From: Acidobacteriota bacterium
GTDB lineage: Bacteria > Acidobacteriota > UBA6911 > RPQK01 > JADFOI01
Assembly: GCA_963663035.1 (NCBI GenBank)
Contig: OY760074.1
Span: 2,976,001 to 3,040,000 of the forward strand
Length of the DNA: 64,000 bases
Direction: 5' to 3'
This document shows, piece after piece, positions 8,333 to 58,101 of the stretch. The notes under the pieces are model-generated. The model did no database searches and was not told the origin of the DNA. It worked only from the letters and a program-made list of their open reading frames with translations. Every line of letters begins with the position of its first letter. Within the stretch, counting starts at the first letter, position 1. The position numbers and the translations under genes were made by a program.

Positions 8333-11169
8333 TGTCGCAGAGAATAAACACCGGATTTATTCAAGCTCTGGTTAAACGTGACCTCCGGAAATATTTCACC
8401 AATCCCACCGGTTACGTTTTCATCACGCTTTTTATTTTTCTCAGTGCGGCAGCAGCCTTCTGGCCCAATCGCTTTTTCCTCAACAATCTGGCTAACCTGA
8501 ACCAGTTGAACGCCGTGTTTCCCTATCTCCTGGTGTTCTTTATTCCGGCCTTAACCATGGCAGTATGGGCTGAGGAAAAAAAGCAGGGAACAGATGAGCT
8601 GCTCTTGACGCTTCCAGCGACCAGCCTTGAAATCGTTTTAGGCAAGTACCTGGCCACTCTGGGAATCTACACAGCTTCACTGCTGCTGTCCTTAAGCCAC
8701 GTCTTGGTCCTGTTCTGGCTGGGAAGTCCGGATCTGGGTCTGATGTTCAGCAATTATGTCGGTTATTGGTTGATCGGCGCGGCCATGATTTCCCTGGGAA
8801 TGCTGGCCTCTCTTTTGACCTCTAACGCAACCATTTCCTTTGTCCTTGGAGCTGCTTTGTGTTCCTTTTTTGCATTCATTGAGTCGGTAGCTGCCGTGAG
8901 TGAGAGTCTGGCTCGACTCCTGTCCCCTTTGGGTGTCTTTGACTCCTTCACTGACTTTTCCCTAGGGGTCATGAGCTTTTCAGGGCTACTTTATTTTACC
9001 TCCATGACGGCCTTGCTACTCTACTTCAATGTTCTGCTGCTGGAAAAAAGGCACTGGCCCCGCCAGGCGGAGGGGCATCCCATGTGGTTGCACCATCTGA
9101 TCCGGACAGTAGCGCTCATCATTGTAGTCATCAGCATCAATGTCATCCTGGGAAGGACCAGCGTGGCCCGAGTAATGCGCCTGGATACTACAGCCGAGCG
9201 GCTCCATTCGCTCAGTGGCGCAACAAGGGAATTGCTCGCAGATCTCCCCGAAGACCGCCCTGTGTTTATCCAGGCCTTTGTGAGCCCGGATATGCCGGAA
9301 CAATTGGTGCAAACCCGCGAAAACTTACTGGGAGTCCTTAATGAAGTGGATTCCATCGGTGGAGCCAGCGTACAAGTGCTGATTGAAGAAACCGAGTCCT
9401 TCACCCAAGCAGCACGTGATGCTCGAGAAAAGTTTGGAATTACCCCAAGACAGGTGCCCAATCTGGGAAGTGCCCGAGCCGGATACTCCGAAGCCTTCAT
9501 GGGCTTAGCCTTTACTAGCGGCGCTCAGGAACACGTGATTCCCTTTCTAGACAGAGGGTTGTCTGCAGAATATGAAATCACGCGAAGTATTCGTGTGATT
9601 GCCCAGACAGACCGCAAGAAGATCGGAGTGCTGGACACCGAAGCCAAGATCTTTGGCGGATTCGACTTTCAGACCATGCAAACCACCACGCCATGGTCGG
9701 TGGTAGAAGAACTGAAGAAACAGTATGAAGTCGTTCGGGTTATCTCTACCGGACCTATCCCGGAGGATCTCGACGGATTACTCGTCGCTTTGCCCTCTTC
9801 CCTCCCGCAACCGCAAATGGACCGTCTGCTCGCCTACATTGAGGCAGGAAATCCTACCCTGCTGTTGATCGACTCTTTACCCGTGATCAATCTCTCACTC
9901 GGCCCGTCAGAGCGAGCCGGTGCCAATATGAATCCTTTTCTGGCACAGCAGAGTGCTCCGCCTGAGGAAAAAGGGAATATCCAAGCGTTTATGTCCAAGA
10001 TTGGAGTCAGTTGGAATTCTGCCAGTGTCGTTTGGGATTCCTACAATCCTCATCCCAATCTTGCCCAACTACCTCCTGAATTTGTCTTTGTCGGCAAGGG
10101 AAATGAAAACTCCGAAACCTTCAATGAGCAGCACCCGAGTAGCGCCAGTTTGCAGGAACTGGTCTTGTTGTATCCTGGACAAATCGATCAGGCGGCCGGC
10201 ACCGACTACGAGTTTGAGCCGCTGCTGAAGTCGGGTTTTATCTCTGGACAATTCAGCTATTTTCAAATGGTCCAGGAGACCTTTCTGGGATTGCAGGTCA
10301 TCCATAATCTTCCCTATCGACCTGATGACAGGGACTACGTCCTGGCTGCCCACATCCAGGGACCGAAAGAGAGCACTGAGGCTGAAGTGACCATCGACGC
10401 TGAAGTGGCCACCGACGCTGAAGTGGCCACCGACGCTGAAGTGGCCACCGACGCTGAAGTGACCACCACCGACGCTGAAGTGACCACCCAGGAGATTGAG
10501 AGCAGTTCCGAGGATTCCACCGCGGAGGAAACCGATGAAGGCCCTGCCCCAGCTAAACCTCTGGACGTCATCATCATCGCCGACCTGGACTTCATTTCCG
10601 AGCAATTCTTTCAGATCCGAGCAGGGGGACTGGAGAACCTCCACTTCGACAACATCACCTTCTTTCTAAACAGTATCGATGTCCTCATAGGTGATGAGTC
10701 CTTCATCACCTTGCGCAACAAGCGAGTTCGACACCGAACCTTGGAACGGGTTGAGGACCAAACTCGCAACTTTATCGCGGAGGGCCTGCAGAAGGAAGAG
10801 GAGGCCGAAGCGGAAGCGGACCAGGCTCTGGCCCAGGCTCAGCAGCGGCTAACTGAAAAGGTCGAGGAGGTACGGCAACGCCCAGATCTGGACGCTCAGA
10901 CCAAACAGATTATGGCTCAAAATATCCAGGAGGTGGAGAACCGTCGATTTGAGGTTTTAAGGGCCAACATCGAAGCGGAAAAAGAGGCAAAACTCAACAG
11001 TAGCAAGGAGAATATGGAAGAGCAGATCCGGAGAATTCAGGGCAACATCAAAACCTTCGCGGTCATGCTGCCACCAATCCCTGTCTTTGCTCTGGGCGTA
11101 CTGATTTTTGTGCGCCGCCAGCGTCGGGAAAGGGAGGGGGCCGCAGCCGCTCGCAGACTGAGGGCATAG
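8329..11169 (+). CDS. Fused ABC-2 permease and Gld auxiliary component (GldF-GldG-like)
   Basis: YFTNPTGYVF, PALTMAVWAEEKKQGTDELLLTLP permease, then RLDTTAERLHSLS, EYEITRSI, IIIADLDF GldG-type motifs and a C-terminal TM. Confidence 0.88.
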   Translation: MMSQRINTGFIQALVKRDLRKYFTNPTGYVFITLFIFLSAAAAFWPNRFFLNNLANLNQLNAVFPYLLVFFIPALTMAVWAEEKKQGTDELLLTLPATSLEIVLGKYLATLGIYTASLLLSLSHVLVLFWLGSPDLGLMFSNYVGYWLIGAAMISLGMLASLLTSNATISFVLGAALCSFFAFIESVAAVSESLARLLSPLGVFDSFTDFSLGVMSFSGLLYFTSMTALLLYFNVLLLEKRHWPRQAEGHPMWLHHLIRTVALIIVVISINVILGRTSVARVMRLDTTAERLHSLSGATRELLADLPEDRPVFIQAFVSPDMPEQLVQTRENLLGVLNEVDSIGGASVQVLIEETESFTQAARDAREKFGITPRQVPNLGSARAGYSEAFMGLAFTSGAQEHVIPFLDRGLSAEYEITRSIRVIAQTDRKKIGVLDTEAKIFGGFDFQTMQTTTPWSVVEELKKQYEVVRVISTGPIPEDLDGLLVALPSSLPQPQMDRLLAYIEAGNPTLLLIDSLPVINLSLGPSERAGANMNPFLAQQSAPPEEKGNIQAFMSKIGVSWNSASVVWDSYNPHPNLAQLPPEFVFVGKGNENSETFNEQHPSSASLQELVLLYPGQIDQAAGTDYEFEPLLKSGFISGQFSYFQMVQETFLGLQVIHNLPYRPDDRDYVLAAHIQGPKESTEAEVTIDAEVATDAEVATDAEVATDAEVTTTDAEVTTQEIESSSEDSTAEETDEGPAPAKPLDVIIIADLDFISEQFFQIRAGGLENLHFDNITFFLNSIDVLIGDESFITLRNKRVRHRTLERVEDQTRNFIAEGLQKEEEAEAEADQALAQAQQRLTEKVEEVRQRPDLDAQTKQIMAQNIQEVENRRFEVLRANIEAEKEAKLNSSKENMEEQIRRIQGNIKTFAVMLPPIPVFALGVLIFVRRQRREREGAAAARRLRA
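10378..10488 (+). repeat. In-frame 18-bp VNTR (about 6 units, DAEVAT) in the GldFG-like gene
   Basis: gacgctgaagtggccacc x3 exact, plus three variant units (one of 21 bp). Confidence 0.95.
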
Positions 11170-15158: not shown

Positions 15159-17018
15159 ATGACCGAGGTCTTAACTCATGATCTCTTGATCGTAGGGGGG
15201 GGTGCAGCGGGTCTGAGAGCTGCCATCGCAGCGGTTGAGGTAGATCCCAACTTAGACATCGCCCTGGTGTCCAAGGTTTTTCCGATGCGCAGCCACACCG
15301 TTTCGGCGGAAGGAGGGTCGGCTGCGGTATTACGGGAAGATGACAACCTGGAGCTCCACGGTTTTGACACGGTGCGCGGAAGCGACTTTCTGGCTGACCA
15401 GGATGTGGTCGAACTCTTTGTGAAAAATGCGCCTGAGGAGATCATCCAACTGGAGCATTGGGGTTGTCCCTGGAGTCGTGACAGCGACGGGAAGATCAGC
15501 GCTCGGGCCTTTGGTGGAATGAGCGTGAAAAGAACCTTCTATGCTGCTGACAAGACCGGTTTCCATATGCTGCACGCCCTTTTTCAGACCTCGCTCAAAC
15601 ACGCTAGTATTCACCGTTACGATGAATGGTTTGTCAGCTCCTTGCTGGTGGAAGAGGGACGTTGTGTAGGGGTTACGGCGCTGGATTTGAACAGTGGAGA
15701 GCTCTATCCCATAGTGGCAAGAGCCGTTTTGCTGTGCACGGGAGGTGGCGGCCCTTTTTCAGACCTCGCTCTATTCCTTTTCAGCTCCTTGCTGGTGGAA
15801 GAGGGACGTTGTGTAGGGGTTACGGCGCTGGATTTGAACAGTGGAGAGCTCTATCCCATAGTGGCAAGAGCCGTTTTGCTGTGCACGGGAGGTGGCGGTC
15901 AGATCTTTCCTTTTACCACCAACGCCAGTATCAAAACCGGCGACGGGATGGCTCTGGCCTACCGGGCTGGCGCCGCACTCAAGGACATGGAGTTTGTCCA
16001 GTACCATCCCACCGGACTGCCAGGGACCGGAATTCTGATTACCGAAGCCTCCCGGGGAGAGGGAGGATACCTGGTTAACAATGAAGGGGAAAGATTTCTC
16101 GAGCGTTATATCCCGGGCAAGATGGAGCTGGGACCACGGGACATCCTCTCTCGGTCCATCATGACCGAAATGGAGGAGGGACGTGCCTTCGAAGGCCAAT
16201 ACGGTCAGTACGTTCACTTGGATCTGAGCCATTTGGGAGAAAAACTGATCGATGAGAAGCTCCCATTTGTCAGAGAACTGGTGGTCAAATTCGTAGGCAT
16301 CGACCCCGTCCACGTGCCCATTCCGGTACGCCCCGTGGTGCACTACATGATGGGGGGGGTGAGTACTGACATCAATGGCAAGACCTCTCTTTCCAGTCTC
16401 TCGGCCGCCGGCGAGGTGGCCTGCATTTCCCTCAACGGCGCCAATCGCCTGGGCTCCAATTCCCTGACGGAATGTCTCGTGTTTGGTGCACTCAGCGGAA
16501 GGGCAGCTGCCCAAGATGCCCTGGAGGGACAGCCCGTACCCCAGAACCCGGTTCAGCTGCTGGCTGAAGAGGAGCAAAAGCGCATTTCCGAGAAGTTCCT
16601 GGAAAAGGAGGGCGGTCAGGAACGGGTGAGCTCGCTTCGTGAAGAGATGCATCGGACCATGGAAGAAAATTGCGGCGTTTTTCGTACAGGGAAGGGACTA
16701 CAGGAGGCATGCACGACCCTGAGAGAACTGCGGGAACGCTTTGATGACGTTGTGATTGAGGATCGAGGCCATGTTTTCAATACCGAACTGATAGCTGCCC
16801 TGGAGCTTGACTTCATGCTCGATGCCGCTGAGTGCATCGCTCACTCGGCGCTGGCTCGCGAAGAATCACGTGGGGCTCACTCTCGTCTGGATTTTCCCCA
16901 GCGCTCCGACGAGAAATTCCTCCACCACCTCCTGGCTTACGCAACTCCCCAGGGACCTCGTCTCGAGCAGCAAGCGGTTACCATCACGCGCTGGCCGCCA
17001 CAGGAGAGAAAGTATTAG
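15159..17018 (+). CDS. frdA: Fumarate reductase/succinate dehydrogenase flavoprotein (contains a 49-codon in-frame duplication)
   Basis: GGGAAG, RSHTVSAEGG (covalent FAD His), QYHPT, TEASRGEGG, HYMMGG, GANRLGSNSL, REESRGAH. Confidence 0.92.
   Translation: MTEVLTHDLLIVGGGAAGLRAAIAAVEVDPNLDIALVSKVFPMRSHTVSAEGGSAAVLREDDNLELHGFDTVRGSDFLADQDVVELFVKNAPEEIIQLEHWGCPWSRDSDGKISARAFGGMSVKRTFYAADKTGFHMLHALFQTSLKHASIHRYDEWFVSSLLVEEGRCVGVTALDLNSGELYPIVARAVLLCTGGGGPFSDLALFLFSSLLVEEGRCVGVTALDLNSGELYPIVARAVLLCTGGGGQIFPFTTNASIKTGDGMALAYRAGAALKDMEFVQYHPTGLPGTGILITEASRGEGGYLVNNEGERFLERYIPGKMELGPRDILSRSIMTEMEEGRAFEGQYGQYVHLDLSHLGEKLIDEKLPFVRELVVKFVGIDPVHVPIPVRPVVHYMMGGVSTDINGKTSLSSLSAAGEVACISLNGANRLGSNSLTECLVFGALSGRAAAQDALEGQPVPQNPVQLLAEEEQKRISEKFLEKEGGQERVSSLREEMHRTMEENCGVFRTGKGLQEACTTLRELRERFDDVVIEDRGHVFNTELIAALELDFMLDAAECIAHSALAREESRGAHSRLDFPQRSDEKFLHHLLAYATPQGPRLEQQAVTITRWPPQERKY
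15634..15898 (+). repeat. 118-bp direct repeat inside frdA (15634-15751 = 15781-15898)
   Basis: Identical copies 147 bp apart; junction 15751-15771 copies 15576-15596. Confidence 0.95.
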
Positions 17019-18228: not shown

Positions 18229-18581
18229 GAGTCAAGACCACAGATCCCATCTGGTGGGCACTGTTTTCAGCAGGGGGAACGCTGGCCGCTTTTCTCCTAC
18301 CGGCTCACGTTCTCCTCACAGGAGTGGGAATCGCCTTTGGCTGGGTTTCCCCACAGATCCTCGCTTACCAGCGCCTCATCATCTTACTGGAGCATCCTCT
18401 TTTAAAGATTTACCTCTTTCTCCTGATCTCGCTGCCGCTTTTTCACTGGGCCCATCGCTTTCGATTCGTGTTGATGGACCTGGGACTCAGGAATCTGAAA
18501 ACTCCTGTTGCAGTCCTCTGTTACGGAGGGGCTGTGGCGGGGACAGTCCTGGCAGGTCTCTTGCTCTTCGTCTCCATCTAG
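18219..18581 (+). CDS. frdD: Fumarate reductase membrane subunit D
   Basis: DPIWWALFSAGG, LPLFHWAHR; E. coli FrdD-like. Confidence 0.87.
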   Translation: MAVRVKTTDPIWWALFSAGGTLAAFLLPAHVLLTGVGIAFGWVSPQILAYQRLIILLEHPLLKIYLFLLISLPLFHWAHRFRFVLMDLGLRNLKTPVAVLCYGGAVAGTVLAGLLLFVSI

Positions 18582-18712
18582 CCCGCTGCTCTCACACCAG
18601 GTCGTCGCGAAGCGGCGAAAGGACCGGCCTGACAAGGCGCTTGCGGGTCGCGGAACGCAGTCAGGTCAGATCATTGCGCCGATGCAGTAGAGCGGGCGTG
18701 AGAAGTGCGGGC
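18581..18712 (+). mobile_element. Structured repeat family A, copy A1 (132 bp, shortest form)
   Basis: Terminal IR gcccgc..ctcacacc / gtgagaagtgcgggc; core ctgacaagg..aacgcagtcag; first G completes the frdD TAG. Confidence 0.9.
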
Positions 18713-18719
18713 TCAGCCA

Positions 18720-20047
18720 TCAGTTGGGAAGGAAGATGTAGCGAAGAACAAACAGAACCGCAAAAAAAGAAATCAGAGCTGGCACTTCTTTAAATCTCCC
18801 CTCGACGGCCTTCAGCAGAGTGTAGGAGATAAATCCAAATGCGATGCCTTCGGTGATGCTGAAGGTCAGCGGCATGATCAGAATCGTCAGAAAAGCGGGA
18901 ATGGCCTCGCTGATCTGATCCCAATCGATACGCTTGACATTTCTCAGCATCAGGCAACCAACCATGATCAGGGCTGGAGCAACCACAGGATAAAGGACAA
19001 GACCTTCCCCGCTGTCCATCCCGCCCCCGATCATTTTCACCAGCGGTGTGAAGAAAATGGCAAGCAGGAACAATGTTCCCGTCACCATGTTGGCCAGTCC
19101 AGTCCGAGCACCGGCGCTGACCCCACTGGCACTCTCAATATAGCTCGTGACCGTAGAGGTTCCCAGGAGGGCGCCCGCCGTCGTACCCACGGCGTCGGAC
19201 AGCAGTGCCCAGCGCGCGCGGGAGGCTTCCGTCGGGCGCCAGAAGACCGGCTTCCTGAGTCACTCCAATCAATGTTCCAACCGTATCGAAGAGATCCAAA
19301 AAGAAGAATACGAAGATGATCGAAAGGATTCCCGCCTGGAAAGCACCCACCAGGTCCAGCTGGAAGAAAGTGGGTGCAATGGATGGCACGGGCCCAACAA
19401 GCCCCTCATACTCAATCATGCCTGTCCCCAGTGCTACCAGGAGGGTCATGAGGATTCCCAGGAGAATGGCCGTCCGCGCGCCCAGCGTGAGTAAGATTGC
19501 CATCAGCACCAGACCAAAGAAAGAGAGCAGCACCGGTGGTGAAGTCAGCTCCCCAAGCCCCACCAGGGTTCCGGGGGAATCCACCACAATACCGCTCCAC
19601 TCCAGTCCCACCACAGAGATCAGCAGGCCAATACCCACCGCAATCGCATTTTTTAGTGTAGAGGGAACGGCCTTGATTAGCCTTTCCCGGAGGCCAATGA
19701 AGGAGAGTAGGATAAAGAGTACTCCGGAGATGAAAACGGCTCCCAATGCTTCCTGCCAGCTATAGCCAAGAGTCAGAACCACGACATAGCTAAAGAAGAA
19801 ATTATGGCCCATGCCTGGTGCCAAGGCGATGGGATAGTTGGCCGCTAGCCCCATCACAAAGGTCGCCAGGGCACTGGCAATGCAAGTAGCGACCATGGGC
19901 CGACTCCAGATTCATCCCGGCCGCATTCATGACCACCGGCTGCACGAAAATGATGTAGGCTGACGTCATGAAGGTCGTCAGTCCTCCCGACATCTCGCGC
20001 TGTAAAGTGGTCTTGTTCTCCGTCAGCTTGAAAAGCCGTTCCCACAT
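18720..20047 (-). CDS. NCS2/AzgA-family purine permease, split by two frameshifts (probably sequencing errors)
   Basis: Three ORF pieces join into one permease (GLTTFMTSAYII, NYPIALAPGMG, DLFDTVGT, TSYIESASGV, MPLTFSI). Extra base in the GGG run near 19897; 2 nt missing in the (CG)n run near 19212-19220. Confidence 0.85.
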
Positions 20048-40081: not shown

Positions 40082-40289
40082 GCCGGGATTATGCATAGGT
40101 TCTCGTAACGAAGTGGCGCAAGCGCCGCGATGACAAGGCGTGCGAGGGGTACCCGCCACGGGTCGGGCCCCGCAGGCGTACTCTTGCAGTACGCCGAGGA
40201 GCCCAAGGGGTACCCGCTTGCGGGTCGCACAACGCAGTCAGCGTGGATGATTGCGGCACTGCAGTAGAGAATTTATGCATACTCCCGGC
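40082..40289 (+). mobile_element. Structured repeat family A', copy 1 (208 bp)
   Basis: IR gccgggattatgcata / tatgcatactcccggc; core tgacaagg..caacgcagtca shared with family A; followed by TAA. Confidence 0.92.
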
Positions 40290-40317: not shown

Positions 40318-42561
40318 ATGCAGCCTTCGAAAAAAGACTATCTGAGCCATCTGAACGAACAGCAGAGATTTGCTGTCACCCAGACCGAAGGCCCAATGCT
40401 CATCCTGGCGGGAGCCGGGAGTGGAAAAACCCGAACGATCACTTACAAAATCGCCCATCTGATTGAGCAGGAAGTCTGCCGACCTGATCAAGTCCTGGCT
40501 GTGACCTTTACCAACAAAGCCGCTGAGGAGATGAGAAGTCGAGTCGAAGACTTACTGAAACATCTGGGTACTTCTCCTTTGGTTTGCACGTTTCACTCTT
40601 TCAGCGTTCGCGTGCTGCGGCGCTACGCTGACCTTATTGGGTATCGTACGGACTTCAGCATCTGTGACAGCGACGATCAGAAAAGGGTTATCAAGGCTGT
40701 CTACGAAGAACTCCACTTCACGGACAGCCAGCTCCCCATGAGAAAAGCTCGGGCGGCCATCAGTCGAGCCAAAAGCAATAACTGGGCCCCAGAAGAGTAT
40801 CTCGACAAGTCATCTGATCTCGCCCGCGAGGAACTTTCTCTCATCTACACCGCTTATGAGCGCTTTCTTTTGCGATCCAATGCCATGGATTTTGATGACC
40901 TGATCCTGCTAACCGTGCGCTTGTTGAAAAAGAACCATGAGGTTCGACAGAAATACGGTGAGTCCTACTCCCGTGTTCTGATTGACGAGTATCAGGATAC
41001 CAATCGTCCTCAGTATGACCTGATTAAGAATCTTACCGAGGTTCACCACAACATTACGGCTGTGGGAGACGATGATCAGTCCATCTATGGCTTTCGAGGC
41101 TCTGACATTGGAAACATTTTGCGCTTTGAAGCGGACTTCCCGGGAGCGACCATTGTCAAACTCGAGCAAAACTACCGCTCTAGTCAGAACATTCTGGATG
41201 CTGCAAGCAGCCTGGTGTCCAACAACCTGAATCGGAAGGGGAAAGTCCTCTGGACCGATCAACAGGCCGGTCAGCCAATCGAACTCTTCGCGGCGCCCGA
41301 CGCCAAGACTGAGGCAACTTTCGTTTCGAAGAAGATCCGCGAGCATCTCCAGAAGGGAGAAGAGGGGCTCGCCGTTTTGTATCGAACCAACTTCCAATCC
41401 CGACAATTTGAGGAAGCCTTTAGACGGTATGAGATTCCCTACAAGCTGATTGGAGGGACCAGTTTCTATCAGCGGAAAGAGGTCAAGGATGCACTGGCTT
41501 ACCTGCGAGTGGCCATGAATCCCAATGATAATGTCTCTTTCTTGAGGATTATGAATCGCCCCACACGAGGGATCGGCAAAGTGACAGAGGATCGCCTTCA
41601 TGGCAAGGCGCGAGATGAGCAGACAACCCTCTGGGAAGCCCTTCGAAAAGGCATAGAAGAGAACACTTTTCCCTCCCGAACACACCTGGTGTTGCAGCGT
41701 TTTTTCGAGCTCATATGCGAGTGTCAGGGCTTCCTGGAACTCCCTCTGTACCTATCCCTGGAAAAAATTCTGGAAGCCTGCGGCTATATCAAAGCCCTCA
41801 GGAGCGAGGATTCGGAAGAGGCTCATAATCGGACTCTGAATTTGGAAGAGTTGATCCTGCTGGCCAAAGAAAATGCAGAGCACGGATACACTTTTCAAGA
41901 GTTTCTCGACCACGCCGCGTTACGCTCCGAAGCGGACGATTATGACGAATCGGCAGCGGTCAGCCTCATGACCTTACACAATGCCAAAGGTCTTGAGTTT
42001 CCCATTGTTTTTCTAGTCGGTTGTGAAGAAGGACTCTTCCCACACAGCCGATCGGTGGCTGAGGATGATCTGGAGGAAGAGCGCCGCCTTTGTTATGTGG
42101 GGCTAACCCGGGCACAGAAGAAAATCTACCTCACCTATTCCCGTCTGCGTCGGTTTTTCGGCCGGGAGGGAGAAGAAATAAATCTTCCCAGCCGATTCTT
42201 ACAGGAGATTCCAGAACATCTCATCCGCGTCTCCTCCGGCCCTTTTCCGGTCGGTGAGTTTGTCCACCCCAGTGCCAGTCTTGGAGGATACCTGCAACGA
42301 CAAAAGCGTACCGGGACAGGTTTTGCAAAGACCCACGATTCAGTAGACAGCGTTCAAGGATTCTTGAACGAGCTCTCTCAGAAAAAAGGCAAATCAAAAA
42401 GCAATTTCATCTCCGGCGCGAGAATTGTCCACGAGAAGTTCGGTTACGGACAGATCCTTCGGGTCCAGGACACCGGCGACGACTTGAAGCTCACTGTACG
42501 ATTTCCGGGCCAGGGCATTAAACGGCTGCTACAGAGCTATGCCAAGTTGAAGCTGGTTTAG
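40318..42561 (+). CDS. pcrA: UvrD/PcrA DNA helicase
   Basis: LAGAGSGKT, TFTNKAA, IDEYQDTN, VGDDDQSIY, LEQNYRS, TLHNAKGLEF, EERRLCYV, C-terminal Tudor-like domain. Confidence 0.93.
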   Translation: MQPSKKDYLSHLNEQQRFAVTQTEGPMLILAGAGSGKTRTITYKIAHLIEQEVCRPDQVLAVTFTNKAAEEMRSRVEDLLKHLGTSPLVCTFHSFSVRVLRRYADLIGYRTDFSICDSDDQKRVIKAVYEELHFTDSQLPMRKARAAISRAKSNNWAPEEYLDKSSDLAREELSLIYTAYERFLLRSNAMDFDDLILLTVRLLKKNHEVRQKYGESYSRVLIDEYQDTNRPQYDLIKNLTEVHHNITAVGDDDQSIYGFRGSDIGNILRFEADFPGATIVKLEQNYRSSQNILDAASSLVSNNLNRKGKVLWTDQQAGQPIELFAAPDAKTEATFVSKKIREHLQKGEEGLAVLYRTNFQSRQFEEAFRRYEIPYKLIGGTSFYQRKEVKDALAYLRVAMNPNDNVSFLRIMNRPTRGIGKVTEDRLHGKARDEQTTLWEALRKGIEENTFPSRTHLVLQRFFELICECQGFLELPLYLSLEKILEACGYIKALRSEDSEEAHNRTLNLEELILLAKENAEHGYTFQEFLDHAALRSEADDYDESAAVSLMTLHNAKGLEFPIVFLVGCEEGLFPHSRSVAEDDLEEERRLCYVGLTRAQKKIYLTYSRLRRFFGREGEEINLPSRFLQEIPEHLIRVSSGPFPVGEFVHPSASLGGYLQRQKRTGTGFAKTHDSVDSVQGFLNELSQKKGKSKSNFISGARIVHEKFGYGQILRVQDTGDDLKLTVRFPGQGIKRLLQSYAKLKLV

Positions 42562-42832
42562 TGTCTCGTCCCATGTATACCCAGATGTTTGCTGATGGGG
42601 CTTGGGAGGGGAGATCAAGGAGCGAGGAGGAGGTGATGCCGGGACATCGACGACGACGAGCGACGCAGAGATCGCCCGCAACCCCCATCAGCCCGAAGGG
42701 TGGCGGCGGGACGGCATCGATTTCTTTGTCGCTCCTCCTCCACGATGTCACTGACATCGCGTCGTCGTCGCTTCGCGAACTCGACGCCGTCGCGTTCGCC
42801 ACAAACGTCATGGTATTCATGGGACGAGACAC
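42561..42832 (+). mobile_element. Structured repeat family B, copy B1 (272 bp)
   Basis: 21-bp IR gtgtctcgtcccatgtatacc / ggtattcatgggacgagacac; internal homology to B2-B4; begins on the pcrA TAG. Confidence 0.92.
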
Positions 42833-42836
42833 TGAA

Positions 42837-42860
42837 GCCCGCCTTATGCATAATGCGGGC
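42837..42860. repeat. 24-bp collapsed A/A'-type palindrome
   Basis: gcccgccttatgcataatgcgggc: A-type outer ends around the A' TTATGCATAA core. Confidence 0.75.
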
Positions 42861-42886
42861 TAGTACTGAGGTTATAAGGTTTTTCA

Positions 42887-44400: not shown

Positions 44401-46050
44401 ATGGCCGAAGTAAAGAAGTTTCTGACATCCAAACAGGGAATCACTTTCCTGGCACTTTTCATCACTCTGCTGCTGGGAATCACCATTGGGACCCTTGTTT
44501 CCGATCGCGTGCTGAGTGCCCAAGAGAACGAGGCTCCGGTGGCGCTGTTAAAGATTCAAGGTGAAGGGTTGCCCTTGCTCTTAGATGAGACAGACTTTCT
44601 GGGGAAAGGATTTGCTCTGATCGCCAAGACCGTTGAGCCTGCCGTTGTCAACATCAGCACCACGGCGATTATCCGCACCAACACTCCGCAGCAAAGAGGG
44701 ACTCCTGAAGACCTTCGAGACTTTTTCGGAGAGGATTTCTGGGAGCGCTTTTTCGGACCCATGGCTCCTCAGGAGAGGAAGACAACCAGTCTGGGCTCAG
44801 GCGTGATCGTGGACAGCAGCGGATATGTCCTCACCAATTACCACGTAGTGGCTCCCTCTGTTACCCGTCAGGGTACGAGACGAATTGCTGACAAGATCGA
44901 AGTCAAGCTGTCCTCCGGCGAGACCTACCTGGCACGAATCGTCGGGGGAGATCCTGAGTCGGATCTGGGAGTTTTAAAGATCAATGCTCCTGACCCCTTA
45001 CCCTTTGCCAAGGTGGGTGACACCTCGAAGATGCAAGTCGGCGACTGGGTACTGGCCATTGGGAACCCATTCGGAGTCGGTCAGACCGTCACTTCAGGTA
45101 TCGTTTCGGCTACAGGACGGGTGATTCCCACCGCTACGATTTTTGGCGACTATATCCAAACCGACGCGGCCATTAATCCGGGAAACAGTGGTGGCCCGCT
45201 GGTGAATGTGCGCGGTGAGGTTATCGGAATCAACACCTTCATTCTCACCCGAAGCGGTGGCTCCCAGGGAGTGGGATTCTCGATTCCCTCCTCGGTCTTT
45301 ATCAATTCTTACAACCAGCTTGTGACCAAAGGAAAGATTGAGCGGGGCTGGCTCGGGGTCACCATGAACTCCTATCCGTTGTCCGAGGAGCTCAGTGAAT
45401 TCTTTGGTGTCGCCGGGAATGATCCCACGGGAATTCGAGACGGAGACGGAGTTCTCATAACCCAACTCATTGATGAAAAGGGCTCCCCTGCTGAGACCGG
45501 ACCCGCTTACCTGGCCGGCATGCGGGCCGAAGATGTGATTGTAAAGTTTGGGGACCGGGAGACCGAGATCACCTTTGATGTGCGTGTAGCAGTGGCTAAT
45601 ACTCCCCCAGGGGAAGTCGTTCCCGTGACCGTGGTTCGAAAAGGGGAAGTCCTGAATCTGACCGTGACACTGGCGGAAAGAACTCTTGACCAGCAGGAAC
45701 AAGAGGATACCGGACTTTCTTTCGAACAGCAAAGAGAGGAAGAACGAGACAAGGAAATCGGCCTGGAGTTCGAAACGCTGTCGGCTCAAGATGCGGAAAG
45801 ACTGAATATAGAAGACGAGAGAGGAGTGCTGATCCGTGACGTAGCTCCCGGGAGCTTGGCCGATGAAGCCGGGCTATCTCGTACTCAGGTGATTACCAAT
45901 GTCAATGGCATTCCCGTGAGTACTGCCCAACAGTTGTACGACCAAATCAATTCCATGGACTCCGGTGCCGGCGTTGTTCTTCGTGTGATTTGGCTGACCC
46001 CGCAAGATCGGCGACTCAATATCGGCTATGCTGCATTCACAAAGCCTTAG
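44401..46050 (+). CDS. HtrA/DegP-family serine protease with two PDZ domains
   Basis: LGSGVIV, TNYHVV, SDLG, QTDAAINPGNSGG; GGAGG before ATG 44401. Confidence 0.93.
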   Translation: MAEVKKFLTSKQGITFLALFITLLLGITIGTLVSDRVLSAQENEAPVALLKIQGEGLPLLLDETDFLGKGFALIAKTVEPAVVNISTTAIIRTNTPQQRGTPEDLRDFFGEDFWERFFGPMAPQERKTTSLGSGVIVDSSGYVLTNYHVVAPSVTRQGTRRIADKIEVKLSSGETYLARIVGGDPESDLGVLKINAPDPLPFAKVGDTSKMQVGDWVLAIGNPFGVGQTVTSGIVSATGRVIPTATIFGDYIQTDAAINPGNSGGPLVNVRGEVIGINTFILTRSGGSQGVGFSIPSSVFINSYNQLVTKGKIERGWLGVTMNSYPLSEELSEFFGVAGNDPTGIRDGDGVLITQLIDEKGSPAETGPAYLAGMRAEDVIVKFGDRETEITFDVRVAVANTPPGEVVPVTVVRKGEVLNLTVTLAERTLDQQEQEDTGLSFEQQREEERDKEIGLEFETLSAQDAERLNIEDERGVLIRDVAPGSLADEAGLSRTQVITNVNGIPVSTAQQLYDQINSMDSGAGVVLRVIWLTPQDRRLNIGYAAFTKP

Positions 46051-46317
46051 TACTCCCTTTCATAAATACGGTGACGTTTGCGGAAGGGGCTTGCGAGGCG
46101 AGATCGCGAAAAGAGGAGGAGGCGATGCAGGGCCATCGACGACGACGAGAGACAAAGAGATCGCCCGCAACCCCCTTCCGCCCAAAGGGTTGGGGCGGGA
46201 CGTGCCCATCTCTTTGTTTTCCTCCTCGCCGATGTCTCTGCATCGACTCGTCGTCGGGCCTCGAGCTGGGCCCGTCCCGCTCCCAACAAACGTTACCTTA
46301 TTTATGACGGTGAGTAC
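46050..46317 (+). mobile_element. Structured repeat family B, copy B2 (268 bp)
   Basis: About 31-bp imperfect IR gtactccctttcataaata / tatttatgacggtgagtac; TTA on both sides; begins on the htrA TAG. Confidence 0.93.
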
Positions 46318-50850: not shown

Positions 50851-50874
50851 GCCGGGCTTATGCATAAGCCCGGC
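50851..50874. repeat. 24-bp perfect palindrome, collapsed family A' element
   Basis: gccgggcttatgcataagcccggc flanked by TGA and TAG; equals the two A' ends fused at TATGCATA. Confidence 0.85.
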
Positions 50875-52711: not shown

Positions 52712-52833
52712 GCCGGTGTTCAGGAAGGTCAAGATCGAGGCCGCACAAGCCCTTCGACCGCAGGCGTAGCCTAAGCTACATCGAGGATCGAAGGGCGCGG
52801 GAAAAAAAAAGATTGGCCTTCCTGGACACCCGC
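52712..52833 (+). mobile_element. Structured repeat family C, copy C1 (122 bp, uninterrupted)
   Basis: IR ggtgttcaggaaggtcaa / ttggccttcctggacacc; inner stems cccttcga/tcgaaggg and gtagc-cta-agctac. Confidence 0.88.
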
Positions 52834-52846
52834 ACAAGAGACTGCA

Positions 52847-53586
52847 ATGTATCGTGCACTGATTCAGCTAGGCGATCAAGGACAAGTTACCCTTCCAGAA
52901 GATGAAGTGCATCATCTGATACGGGTACGCCGGGCCAGAGCTGGAGACCGCTTTGTGGGACTGGACGGCACAGGTAGAGTGTACCTGTGTTCTCTAGAGG
53001 AAACCCAGGAGGGGTGGCATGGCACCATTCTCAAGGAGTTGCAGGAGCAGGGGAAACCTCCTCTGCGAGTGACTTTGGCACAATCTCTCATCAAGAAAGA
53101 CAAGTTTGAGTGGGTCCTCCAAAAGGCAACTGAAGTCGGGGTCTCAGAAATCGTGCCTCTGATCACTGCCCGAACCGAGCTTCTGCTCAATCCCGAAAGA
53201 GAAGAAAGGAGGATGAAGCGCTGGCGCAAGATTCTGCTGGAGGCGGTCAAGCAGTGCGGTCGCGCTCAATCCCCCAACTGGCTAAGCCCACGGGGTTAAG
53301 GGAGTTTCTGTGTGCCTCATCAGAGGACTTCAAGCTTGTTCTTGATGAAATGGGGGGACTTCACTTGAAAGAGCTCATTGACGGCCATCGAGATGCCGTC
53401 TCCTGTTTGGTCATAGTGGGGCCCGAGGGCGGCTGGGATGAAAGCGATCGCCAGCTTCTCCGAGAGCAGGAAGTTCCCGCAGTAAACTTGGGAACTCGCA
53501 CCTTGCGGGCTGAGACGGCTCCCATAACAATACTTTCCATCCTTCAGTACGAGCTGGGGGATTTGTTCCCAACGACCCAGCCATGA
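52847..53586 (+). CDS. rsmE: 16S rRNA m3U1498 methyltransferase, one frameshift near 53268 (probably an error)
   Basis: HHLIRVRR, QKATEVGV, EAVKQCGR in one frame; VGPEGG, LRAETA in the next; one A missing in caa(a)tcccc. Confidence 0.9.
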
Positions 53587-54410
53587 GATACCTTCCATTG
53601 CTTCTCTTCCTCTTTCAACCTGCTCTGGTCTTCTCCCAGCAGCGACCCCTGGTGACGGAACGCGCGGAGACAGTCACACGGGGTCATATCCTTTTCGATA
53701 TCGGCCTCGAGTTCCTTCAGGATGCTGTTTTTGCTTTCTCAGGGCTGGAAGGGGATTTGACCAGAATCGGGGTGCTGGGGGCCCGCATCGGGGTGGCGGA
53801 TAACGTTGAACTTCAGGTTCTGGGAACCATCCAGAACACCCTAAACATCGAGAATCGCTTTCCGGCTCCCAACACCCCTCTCCTGAACTTCACGGGAAAC
53901 TCCACCAACGATGTGGGAGATTTTACCATGGCCACCAAAGTGCGCCTCACAGAAGAGGGGGAGAGGTGGCCGGCCATAGCGTCTCGGTTCGGCTTTAGCA
54001 TGCCCAATGCCTCCAACGAAAATGGGTTGGGTAATGATGAAATCGATGTCTTTTCCAGTCTTTTGTTTCAAAAGCACTTTGGAAAGCTTCAGGTTTTCAC
54101 GAATCTGGGCTTGGCCATCTTAGGAGACCCGGTTACCCCCGGAGCTCAAGACGACCTGTATACCTATGGCCTGGCAGGACTGTACCCGCTTGGTGACGGG
54201 ATCAATCTGGTGGTAGACGCTTATGGGCGGGTAGGAGCCGGAGGGATCGGGACCGAGGAGCAAACAAGGCTTCGCCTGGGGACCCAGATCAATGCGGCTG
54301 GACTGGTTTGGGATGTGGCCCTGGCCGTGGGTTTTCGAGACACAGATCCTTCCAGGGGACTCCTGCTAGGCGTGTCGAAGGACTTCAACTTCCCCCTGCT
54401 TGTGCGCTAG
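53583..54410 (+). CDS. Putative outer-membrane beta-barrel protein
   Basis: Signal peptide, RPLVTERAET, GDFTMATK, alternating beta-strand pattern. Confidence 0.65.
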   Translation: MRYLPLLLFLFQPALVFSQQRPLVTERAETVTRGHILFDIGLEFLQDAVFAFSGLEGDLTRIGVLGARIGVADNVELQVLGTIQNTLNIENRFPAPNTPLLNFTGNSTNDVGDFTMATKVRLTEEGERWPAIASRFGFSMPNASNENGLGNDEIDVFSSLLFQKHFGKLQVFTNLGLAILGDPVTPGAQDDLYTYGLAGLYPLGDGINLVVDAYGRVGAGGIGTEEQTRLRLGTQINAAGLVWDVALAVGFRDTDPSRGLLLGVSKDFNFPLLVR

Positions 54411-54806
54411 CGGGTGTTCAGGGAGGTCAGGATCGAGGCCGCACAAGCCCTTCGACCGCAGGCGTAGCCAAAGTACTCCCTTTCATCAATACGGCAACGT
54501 TTGCGGGTGGGGCTTGCGAGGCGAGGTCGCGAAGGGAGGAGAAGGCGATGTCAGGGACATCGACGACGACGAGAGCCAAAGAGATCGCCCGCAACCTCCA
54601 TTCGCCAAAAGGGTTGGGACGGGACGGGCCCATCTCTTTGTTGCTCCTCCTCGGCGATGTCAGGGACATCGACTCGTCGTCGCGCCTCGATCTGGGCTCC
54701 GTCGCGTTCCCAACAAACGTTATCGTATTGATGAAAGTGAGTACTAAGCTACGTCGAGGATCGAAGGGCGCGGAGAACGAAGAGCCTGGCCTTCCTGGAC
54801 ACCCGC
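54410..54806 (+). mobile_element. Structured repeat family C, copy C2, interrupted by B3
   Basis: 54410-54472 and 54745-54806 rejoin to match C1; 22-bp terminal stem; GCTA on both sides. Confidence 0.9.
54473..54744 (+). mobile_element. Structured repeat family B, copy B3 (272 bp), nested in C2
   Basis: IR gtactccctttcatcaatacg / cgtattgatgaaagtgagtac; flanks AAA and TAA. Confidence 0.93.
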
Positions 54807-54811
54807 GCTAA

Positions 54812-55019
54812 GCCCGCATTTCTCATACCAGTTCGTCACGAAGCGGCGGAAGGGACGGCCTGACAAGGCGCGCGAGGGGTTCCCGCTTGCGGGTCGACCC
54901 CCGCAAACGTACTCTTGAGTACGTTGAGGAGGCCGAGGGGTTCCCGCTTGCGGGTCGTGCAACGCAGTCAGGTCGGATCATTGCGCCGATGCAGTAGAAC
55001 GGGTGTGAGAAGTGCGGGC
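54812..55019 (+). mobile_element. Structured repeat family A, copy A4 (208 bp, fullest form)
   Basis: IR gcccgcatttctcatacc / ggtgtgagaagtgcgggc; two copies of gaggggttcccgcttgcgggtcg around the aacgtac..gtacgtt hairpin. Confidence 0.93.
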
Positions 55020-57897: not shown

Positions 57898-58101
57898 GCC
57901 CGCACTTCTCACACCCGTTCTACTGCATCGTCGCAATGCCTCGACCTGACTGCGTTGCACGACCCGCACGCCAGTGCGGGTACCCCTCGCGCGCCAGTCG
58001 GGCCCGCAGGCTTTAGCCTGCGGGCCCGTGGGCTAAAGCCCACGGCTCTGTTTTCCGGCCCTTCCGCTGCTTCGCTACGACCTGGTGTGAGAAATGCGGG
58101 C
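57898..58101 (-). mobile_element. Structured repeat family A, copy A5 (204 bp) with REP-like insert
   Basis: Family A IRs; TAA on both sides; extra double hairpin at 58000-58045. Confidence 0.93.

Follow-up and report, generated by a model that had tools for sequence, protein, structure and literature searches.

The A' element at positions 40082–40289 of the window is a member of a superfamily of ERIC-like MITEs that spans several phyla, in which a folded interior rod is held in common and the ends that enclose it are exchangeable. By the window we mean the whole stretch analysed, 64,000 nt of contig OY760074.1 (positions 2,976,001 to 3,040,000, forward strand), and all coordinates below are window coordinates unless a locus is named. 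The initial annotation had described families A, A' and C of this window as having an internal structural core in common and different ends. This is partly confirmed: the phenomenon is real, it holds in part as described, and it is larger than was supposed. That the interior fold is conserved while the ends differ suggests a putative job for the fold itself.

Rod elements of the window

Self-comparison of the window yielded five A, two A', two C and four B elements, plus two 24-bp remnants. The A' element lies on a bacterial chromosome between a TPR gene and uvrD, has terminal inverted repeats and is predicted to fold as one rod (RNA, + strand, −122.4 kcal/mol, z −9.35; RNA, − strand, z −8.12; DNA, z −7.86). 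Its parts are listed here, where R3 is a covariance model built from 37 rods without ERIC or window sequence, and numbers beginning with L are loci of the genome scan described below.

40082..40289, + strand: A' element, 208-bp rod with the full architecture; R3 match on the core 34.9 bits; absent at the orthologous L055 site
40082..40099, + strand: left terminal inverted repeat, IS1380-like type; A/A' ends 8.3/14 identical to the IS1678 end vs 6.1 shuffled
40109..40112, + strand: outer GA/GCA loop, 5' side (partner 40260–40264), from sequence and fold
40134..40139, + strand: middle loop, 5' half, CAAGGC, common to ERIC
40146..40165, + strand: inserted small hairpin module, copy 1; missing from L117, L086 and L052, reversed in L096
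40170..40199, + strand: apical core CC-GCA-GGCGTAC-loop-GTACGCC-GA-GG; among the matches listed, at least 127 distinct in at least 123 loci
40207..40227, + strand: inserted small hairpin module, copy 2
40230..40237, + strand: middle loop, 3' half, CAACGCAG, common to ERIC
40272..40289, + strand: right terminal inverted repeat

Comparison with the scan loci suggests that the outer loop at 40109..40112 is the core's own 2x3 motif in flipped form. The other elements of the window are the following.

18581..18712, + strand: A copy without core, 132 bp; R3 31 bits
24574..24726, − strand: A copy with core, middle-loop 5' half deleted, 153 bp; R3 49.5 bits
31164..31315, − strand: A copy without core, deletion between both module copies, 152 bp; R3 35.9 bits
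42561..42832, no strand: B element at the uvrD stop codon; R3 16.2 (+) and 10.2 (−) bits on its halves; absent in L055
42837..42860, no strand: 24-bp ends-only remnant, A/A' end hybrid
46050..46317, no strand: B element at a protease-gene stop codon; R3 13.9 bits, one half; absent in L055
50851..50874, no strand: 24-bp remnant consisting of ends only, two of A' type joined at TATGCATA
52712..52833, + strand: C copy, a 122-bp rod of ERIC size whose ends differ; model R1 50.4 bits, R3 53.1 bits, with window sequence in neither model
54410..54806, + strand: C copy, apical loop split by a B element (filled vs empty site)
54473..54744, no strand: B element inside a C copy, a pair of rods without core in inverted arrangement; TAA (or CTAAG) target duplicated, left copy with one change
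54812..55019, + strand: A copy, full, 208 bp; R3 31.6 bits on the core
57898..58101, − strand: A copy, apex replaced by two REP-like palindromes, 204 bp; R3 only 8.3 bits
61394..61663, no strand: B element, middle loop on opposite strands in its halves; R3 20.6 (+) and 15.8 (−) bits
63600..63746, + strand: A' copy without core, 147 bp; R3 24.3 bits

The module CC-GCA-stem-loop-GA-GG, which A, A' and C were all said to carry, is present in each family but not in each copy, since only three of the seven A/A' copies have it and those at 18581, 31164, 57898 and 63600 do not. Exact matches to the core pattern number three in the window (40170–40199 in A', 54901–54929 and 24676–24648 in A), with 0 expected from 100 shuffles. 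The stems of A and A' differ in the covarying manner claimed, but the stem quoted for C (GCTACGTC) comes from the copy split by B (54410–54806), and the intact C copy at 52712 has a C.A mismatch in its stem (GCTACATC). The AAGG/AACG internal loop said to be shared has, by eye, both halves intact in six of the nine A/A'/C copies and is damaged in the other three, the 5' half being lost in 24574 and 57898 and the 3' half decayed in 52712. Sequence comparison of the copies does bear out the module GGGG(T/A)CCCGC..GCGGGTCG as common to A and A'. Of the ends described as different, those of C are clearly so, but those of A and A' are variants of one type (GCCCGCATTTCTCACA vs GCCGGGATTATGCATA), and a hybrid mini-copy is found at 42837.

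Whole helices had been thought to come and go between copies of 132–208 bp. These lengths are right for A/A', and the gains are small hairpins at loop positions, but the losses are not helix-wise: by eye each is one uninterrupted deletion that joins two short direct repeats (in 31164 the 24-bp module repeat, in 63600 AGG, in 18581 CGC), and the deletion breakpoints do not respect helix boundaries. The deletion in 24574, also by eye, takes one helix side only, the 5' side of the middle loop.

In family B two core-less rods are joined head to head, with ladders of GA/GA loops, so that the middle loop is carried by either strand; a single-rod element with B-like ends occurs at L074:18570. Three families are nested at 54410–55019, where B lies inside the C apical loop and an A copy starts five bases past the C end, and a pile 3' of the uvrD stop (42561–42870) consists of B, an ends-only remnant and a further B-like end. 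Element ends abut or overlap neighbouring stop codons at 18581, 42561, 46050, 54410, 55019 and 61394, and likewise, at another stop, in L055. The two 24-bp ends-only palindromes (50851–50874 and 42837–42860), one of which sits between hrcA and grpE, are probably deletion scars through the TATGCATA repeat. Small palindromes that we take to be REP-like lie inside rods at 57898–58101 and in L086, L115, L116, L042 and L114, and their positions suggest that rods may serve as targets for other hairpin-moving enzymes.

We also note some features of the window apart from the rods. A 121-bp direct duplication (15631–15898, 99% identical, spacing 147) in a fumarate reductase flavoprotein ORF is a recent duplication or an assembly artefact, the xanthine/uracil permease (18720–19896) and rsmE (52847–53586) genes are each split into two ORFs by frameshift or sequencing error, and an 18-bp tandem repeat lies within an ABC transporter auxiliary gene (10367–10485). 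Rfam gave no gathering-score match on the window, and ARAGORN found no tRNA or tmRNA in it.

Mobility, breadth and ends

Locus L055 (Acidobacteria) is orthologous to 39.9–47.8 kb of the window, with 77–84% amino-acid identity, which puts the host of the window in or near that phylum. It lacks A'40082, B42561 and B46050, three sites in this one orthologous region; at the stop codon of the TPR gene upstream it bears an A-type element of its own, turned the other way. Because L055 differs in presence and orientation, the rods are insertions and not site-conserved RNA genes. They have several properties of MITEs, being short, non-coding, multicopy, bounded by terminal inverted repeats, and present or absent between related genomes. 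No general orientation bias was seen relative to genes, either over 44 elements with a scored ORF caller (15 sense, 11 antisense, 10 convergent, 8 divergent) or with crude ORF calls (12 sense and 18 antisense of 54); by inspection, all five co-directional sites in the window are sense.

One GTDB genome scan, with the core loops fixed and the stems degenerate, found at least 124 stretches in at least 123 loci. Among the matches listed, record titles name more than a dozen phyla; a hand count of the titles of 123 listed loci gives 41 Desulfobacterota/deltaproteobacteria, 34 Acidobacteriota, 7 Nitrospirota, 6 Myxococcota and 35 others, and these others include Bacillota, Bacteroidota, Gammaproteobacteria, Planctomycetota, Spirochaetota and Melainabacteria. 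Since most listed loci come from metagenome assemblies, a lineage that turns up once and out of place may reflect a binning error; the isolates among them include Desulfosarcina widdelii, Desulfocarbo indianensis and Selenomonas bovis. An outer inverted repeat encloses 102 of the 127 listed core matches; the core sits in the middle, and the elements are about 120, 145 or 180 bp long. Models, as opposed to the pattern, found copies in which GGA or ACA replaces GCA, and others with additional end types whose apex is flipped or of ERIC type. A search of 31 of the 123 listed loci against Rfam gave no gathering-score match, the rods giving only sub-threshold matches, and blastn of window and locus elements against plasmids gave no meaningful match.

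Three loci deserve separate mention. In a Bacillota genome, a rod without obvious IS-type ends (L021:9953–10076) lies just upstream of the probable start of a gene that we take to be rpmH, and is possibly a domesticated copy. A 181-aa ORF that abuts a Nitrospira rod (L033:10081–10626) has a partial IscB/Cas9d model match well below cut-off and is probably a stand-alone nuclease domain. At a contig end, L105:32–449 holds a perfect palindrome of 269 bp with a rod in its centre, likely an assembly artefact.

One branch of these elements is already known. Geobacter metallireducens Gmet_R1001–R1024 (Aklujkar 2009, PMC2700814, Fig. S1) belong, on their sequences, to the same superfamily as the window rods: by eye, 5 of the 24 rows carry the same core on the other strand and the remaining 19 carry the flipped GA/GCA apex. 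They were described as regulatory 'predicted short RNA elements' in four deltaproteobacterial species, and the parts of that paper and its supplement consulted on the Geobacter elements give no termini, duplications, end variety or ERIC link (PMC2700814). Sampled rows of the Weinberg 2010 motifs Desulfotalea-1, Solibacter-1, Acido-Lenti-1, Soil-1 and Nitrosococcus-1 are different from the rods, and the core strings are absent from the searched parts of the supplements (PMC2864571). MITE sequences are conserved mostly within genera, according to the part consulted of a recent survey (PMC11602168). In the literature searched, mainly outside subscription journals, no account ties ERIC to these phyla or describes a common interior with swapped ends; the Geobacter family was on record in 2009, as predicted RNAs.

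The proposal that the ends are exchangeable is upheld well outside the window: at least five types of end enclose the same rod, and duplication length differs between three of the end classes. Among elements that match class patterns at both ends, which are those counted, an exact 3-bp duplication flanks 12 of 16 with GGG..AATAA ends (5.1 expected, p 0.0002), a 6-bp duplication 4 of 8 with GTGYCC ends (0.7 expected), and a 4-bp duplication 4 of 11 with CCCG (class-I) ends (1.4 expected, p 0.02). For B, the target duplication is seen by comparing the filled and empty C apex.

Comparison with nine IS ends gave strong similarity for one IS per family only. The CCCG-class ends are 9.5/14 identical to the end of IS1678 (IS1380 family) vs 6.4 when shuffled, the window A/A' ends 8.3/14 to the same end vs about 6, and the Nitrospira-type ends 8.6/14 to the end of ISCfr1 (IS1182 family) vs 6.3. 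The likeness of IS1678 and ISCfr1 to A/A' and Nitrospira-type elements, respectively, is one of the terminal 14–15 bp; unlike the rods, these ISs encode a transposase and have no rod. ISEcp1 ends match weakly and IS1247 ends not at all, and C ends match no tested IS convincingly. The IS1380 family makes target duplications of 4–5 bp, and that seen in the IS1678 record is 5 bp. No transposase was found among 54 window ORFs (chosen from 120 listed), and when the loci were searched for a transposase lying between two widely spaced element ends, all that came up were lone matches at chance level.

The fold and its likeness to ERIC

Loops are more conserved than stems, as the initial annotation required of its idea, in the 37 of 41 type-1 rods (set A4) chosen for having the middle loop: middle-loop bases have majority frequencies of 0.87–0.92 vs 0.43–0.49 in the neighbouring helices, with the limit that the loops are matched in conservation by the loop-closing pairs (0.96) and by the apical stem. 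In the same rods 85% of cells are paired, and covariation is 0.559 vs 0.179 shuffled and at most 0.179 on sliding. Since these rods were selected for the loop, a fairer figure is the loop count among 79 non-redundant core-selected matches (of which 59 form set A2, insertion-bearing or rod-less ones being left out): both middle-loop halves stand at canonical spacing in 28 of the 79 vs 0 of 79 at six control offsets, and the loop lies outside the search pattern. About 13 of the 79 have a symmetrical GAYYGA loop instead of or beside it. Fixed positions occur beside randomised helices, namely a lone G-C pair in 37/37 rods and a G.U pair in 30/37 rods and 12/12 ERIC copies, and in most of the 41 rods the loop is 21–23 nt and 15–17 nt from the core. 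The apex is interchangeable (GCA/GA, GGA/GA, ACA/GA, flipped GA/GCA and ERIC-type GA/GA); as it varies between copies, the steadiest feature is the middle loop AAGGC/AACGC, a dyad AA-S-GC on both strands.

The fold belongs to one strand. At the free stem positions of the 127 listed matches (two core pairs) there are 125 G-T vs 2 A-C combinations, and the C/G pair is complementary in 121; in the variable helices the count is 50 G-T vs 18 A-C, with related sequences counted as independent.

ERIC has been known since 1990–91. It is described as confined to Enterobacteriaceae and Vibrionaceae in the part consulted of PMC10969869, and the published consensus, as given in Table 1a of PMC2759123, shares the loop words of the rods and closes its apex with G.A. 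Like the rods, this MITE (ERIC / IRU / RU-1, of Enterobacteriaceae and Vibrionaceae) is a rod, of about 125 nt, with a CAAGG..CAACGCAG middle loop at a near-equal distance from the apex, and an apical stem that, past a G.A loop, opens with G.U and C-G; covariance matches are reciprocal and on the same strand. It differs in having TA termini (excerpts of PMC2229807 and PMC2759123), whereas the window and related elements have other ends and 3–6 bp duplications; the rods have a GCA/GA apex with one more pair, the A/A' arms are 25–30 nt longer each, and the hosts lie outside Gammaproteobacteria.

Covariance models, whose E-values are rough, carry this comparison. A model made from ERIC only (12 fetched copies) was run with filters off, default filters giving only 2 matches in 1 Mb. 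In 90 kb its top matches are four Desulfobacterales rods (29–34 bits, E 5e-7 to 2e-5), all in register and confined to the strand that carries the motif; in another 98 kb they are five Desulfobacterales/Nitrospira rods (23–35 bits), again on one strand only. It also picks up, at 35 bits, an element that combines an ERIC-type apex with ends of the 3-bp class. Conversely, the top nine matches of R3 in 71.6 kb are 9 of the 12 ERIC copies (31–15.9 bits; best other 13.1), and on the window R3 finds 7 of 9 A/A'/C copies at 24–53 bits. The ERIC-only model gave nothing significant on the window copies (best 10.5 bits), so the link from window to ERIC runs through R3. Model R1, which is dominated by the search pattern, and nhmmer missed ERIC, and generic hairpins also score on the rod and ERIC models, the perfect palindrome of L105 at 24 bits and a hairpin of L008 at 20 bits, each on both strands. 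A descriptor of two blocks placed both K-12 ERICs at the top, but its design partly followed on the ERIC consensus and it was set aside.

Fold, loops and polarity of the window rods are thus those of ERIC, while similarity to the consensus, TA termini and TA duplication are lacking; by blastn the window elements retrieved none of the plasmid records found by an ERIC query, and nhmmer was negative. By this analogy the rods would resemble ERIC in the way they work, yet fall outside ERIC on termini and sequence. Common ancestry of rods and ERIC is the simplest reading of the model matches, and the likeness may also be convergence on one putative binding partner. ERIC copies (L126–L135) match the Rfam families V_AS5, Ysr49 and CssrA, all of small or antisense RNAs, below cut-off, so those annotated small RNAs may be ERIC-derived. 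Transcribed together with its neighbours, ERIC alters the stability of mRNA by way of RNase E, with an effect that depends on orientation, and the part consulted of a 2007 review names no experimentally supported mobiliser (PMC2229807).

Possible roles of the fold

Our preferred reading, to which we give an even chance, places A, A' and C, together with B as a doublet, in a broad superfamily of non-autonomous MITEs related to ERIC, which are moved by transposases that read their ends and tolerated by the host on account of an RNA fold. Their mobility is observed: the elements are scattered and non-coding, inverted repeats bound them, and related genomes differ in which of them they have. The likeness of the ends and the duplication lengths point to DDE transposases encoded elsewhere that would read the outer 15–20 bp, of IS1380 type for A/A', and insertion would be at T..A, often at stop codons. 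The interior folds on one strand into short covarying helices with purine-rich loops at fixed spacing. Co-transcribed with host genes, the putative RNA rod would be recognised by a conserved host factor or nuclease and the insertion thereby tolerated, and, by analogy with ERIC and mRNA decay, lineages that keep the fold would persist and spread. The observed variety of ends would reflect capture of the rod, several times, between the ends of different IS families, which would make ends exchangeable and leave the fold inherited.

Six extra neighbours that are defined by their ends in other genomes count for this model, as all six have a recognisable core. Counting against it are the persistence of 4 of 7 A/A' copies without core, the window A/A' flanks (CTNAG-like and non-identical, with an exact duplication in at most 1 of 8), and apical loops that are mostly 5–7 nt and not RNA-specific tetraloops, and also the missing orientation bias across genomes, the low scores of the ERIC-only model on window copies, the failure of R1 and nhmmer to find ERIC, and the small base of nine IS ends; likewise, the four transposases found on screening 105 of 885 locus ORFs adjoin no core, and no rod was found in the autonomous IS1380, IS1182, IS4, IS256 and IS110 elements tested.

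A possible but doubtful alternative is that the fold acts as single-stranded DNA, read by the mobilising machinery (a HUH/RAYT-like or other enzyme, or an end-joining helper), with the ends secondary. Strict polarity with no transcription bias, fixed geometry in most of the 41 rods, the placing of one rod per strand in B, and conservation that tracks element lineages and not sites all agree with it, as does the middle loop, a dyad of two AA/GC mismatches, since E. coli TnpA-REP needs an AA/GC mismatch on single-stranded REP DNA (part of PMC8266576). REP/REPIN elements with their RAYT (TnpA-REP) are like the rods in strand-specific hairpins, AA/GC mismatches and compensatory changes (excerpts of PMC8266576 and PMC3116915). 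However, duplication length varies with end type, as expected of different DDE enzymes reading the ends, and the ends resemble real IS ends. Unlike REPINs, the rods have longer IS-like ends, a duplication length tied to end type, and no terminal GTAG-tagged REP doublet (no GTAG-tagged REPs in inverted orientation were found in the end sequences examined), and their REP-like hairpins are passengers inside, not termini. A partial screen found no RAYT gene among the 54 window ORFs and 105 of the 885 locus ORFs.

It is rather unlikely that the fold has no binding partner, that is, that we see descent and horizontal spread of one MITE lineage under selection for stable G.A loops that break the palindrome and so avoid hairpin nucleases and deletion. 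The loops are nearly all G/A-rich (64–79% purine at the unpaired positions of A/A'/C), core-less copies persist and apex variants are tolerated, all as it would have it, but adjoining helices are fully randomised (0.43–0.49) while the loop bases, the G-C pair and the G.U pair stay fixed, and stability by itself would fix neither identity nor spacing. Very improbable is that the rods have been domesticated as small RNAs acting in trans or as protein sponges, of CsrA for instance, by means of the GAGGA at the end of the core. Though A follows GAGG in 90% of 79 matches, ERIC copies have the sub-threshold matches to three annotated small/antisense RNA families given above and one weak RsmV match was found (20 bits vs a cut-off of 100), positions and orientation are not conserved between related genomes, the GGA is paired in the fold and missing from flipped and ERIC-type apices, and Rfam has no match in the window.

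Going further than the transposon-and-tolerance reading preferred here, we put forward tentatively, and expect it is more apt to be wrong than right, that the ~120-nt rod is itself the inherited functional unit, an ancient single-stranded module of which ERIC would be the enterobacterial form, read by a putative conserved protein through the AAGGC/AACGC dyad loop and boosting the mobility or persistence of any transposon ends that enclose it. If true, a structure-encoded helper would have hitch-hiked over unrelated transposase families in more than a dozen phyla.

MITE families are usually defined by their ends, the interior being treated as filler. The elements described here are the reverse, with an interior conserved across phyla and ends that change. 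As distant relatives of ERIC they tell which few bases do not vary, so that the question of what reads ERIC could be tested by point mutants, and those among them with IS1380- or IS1182-like ends point to candidate transposases. A covariance model of the rod would annotate a large unrecognised class of repeats in Acidobacteriota, Desulfobacterota and Nitrospirota.
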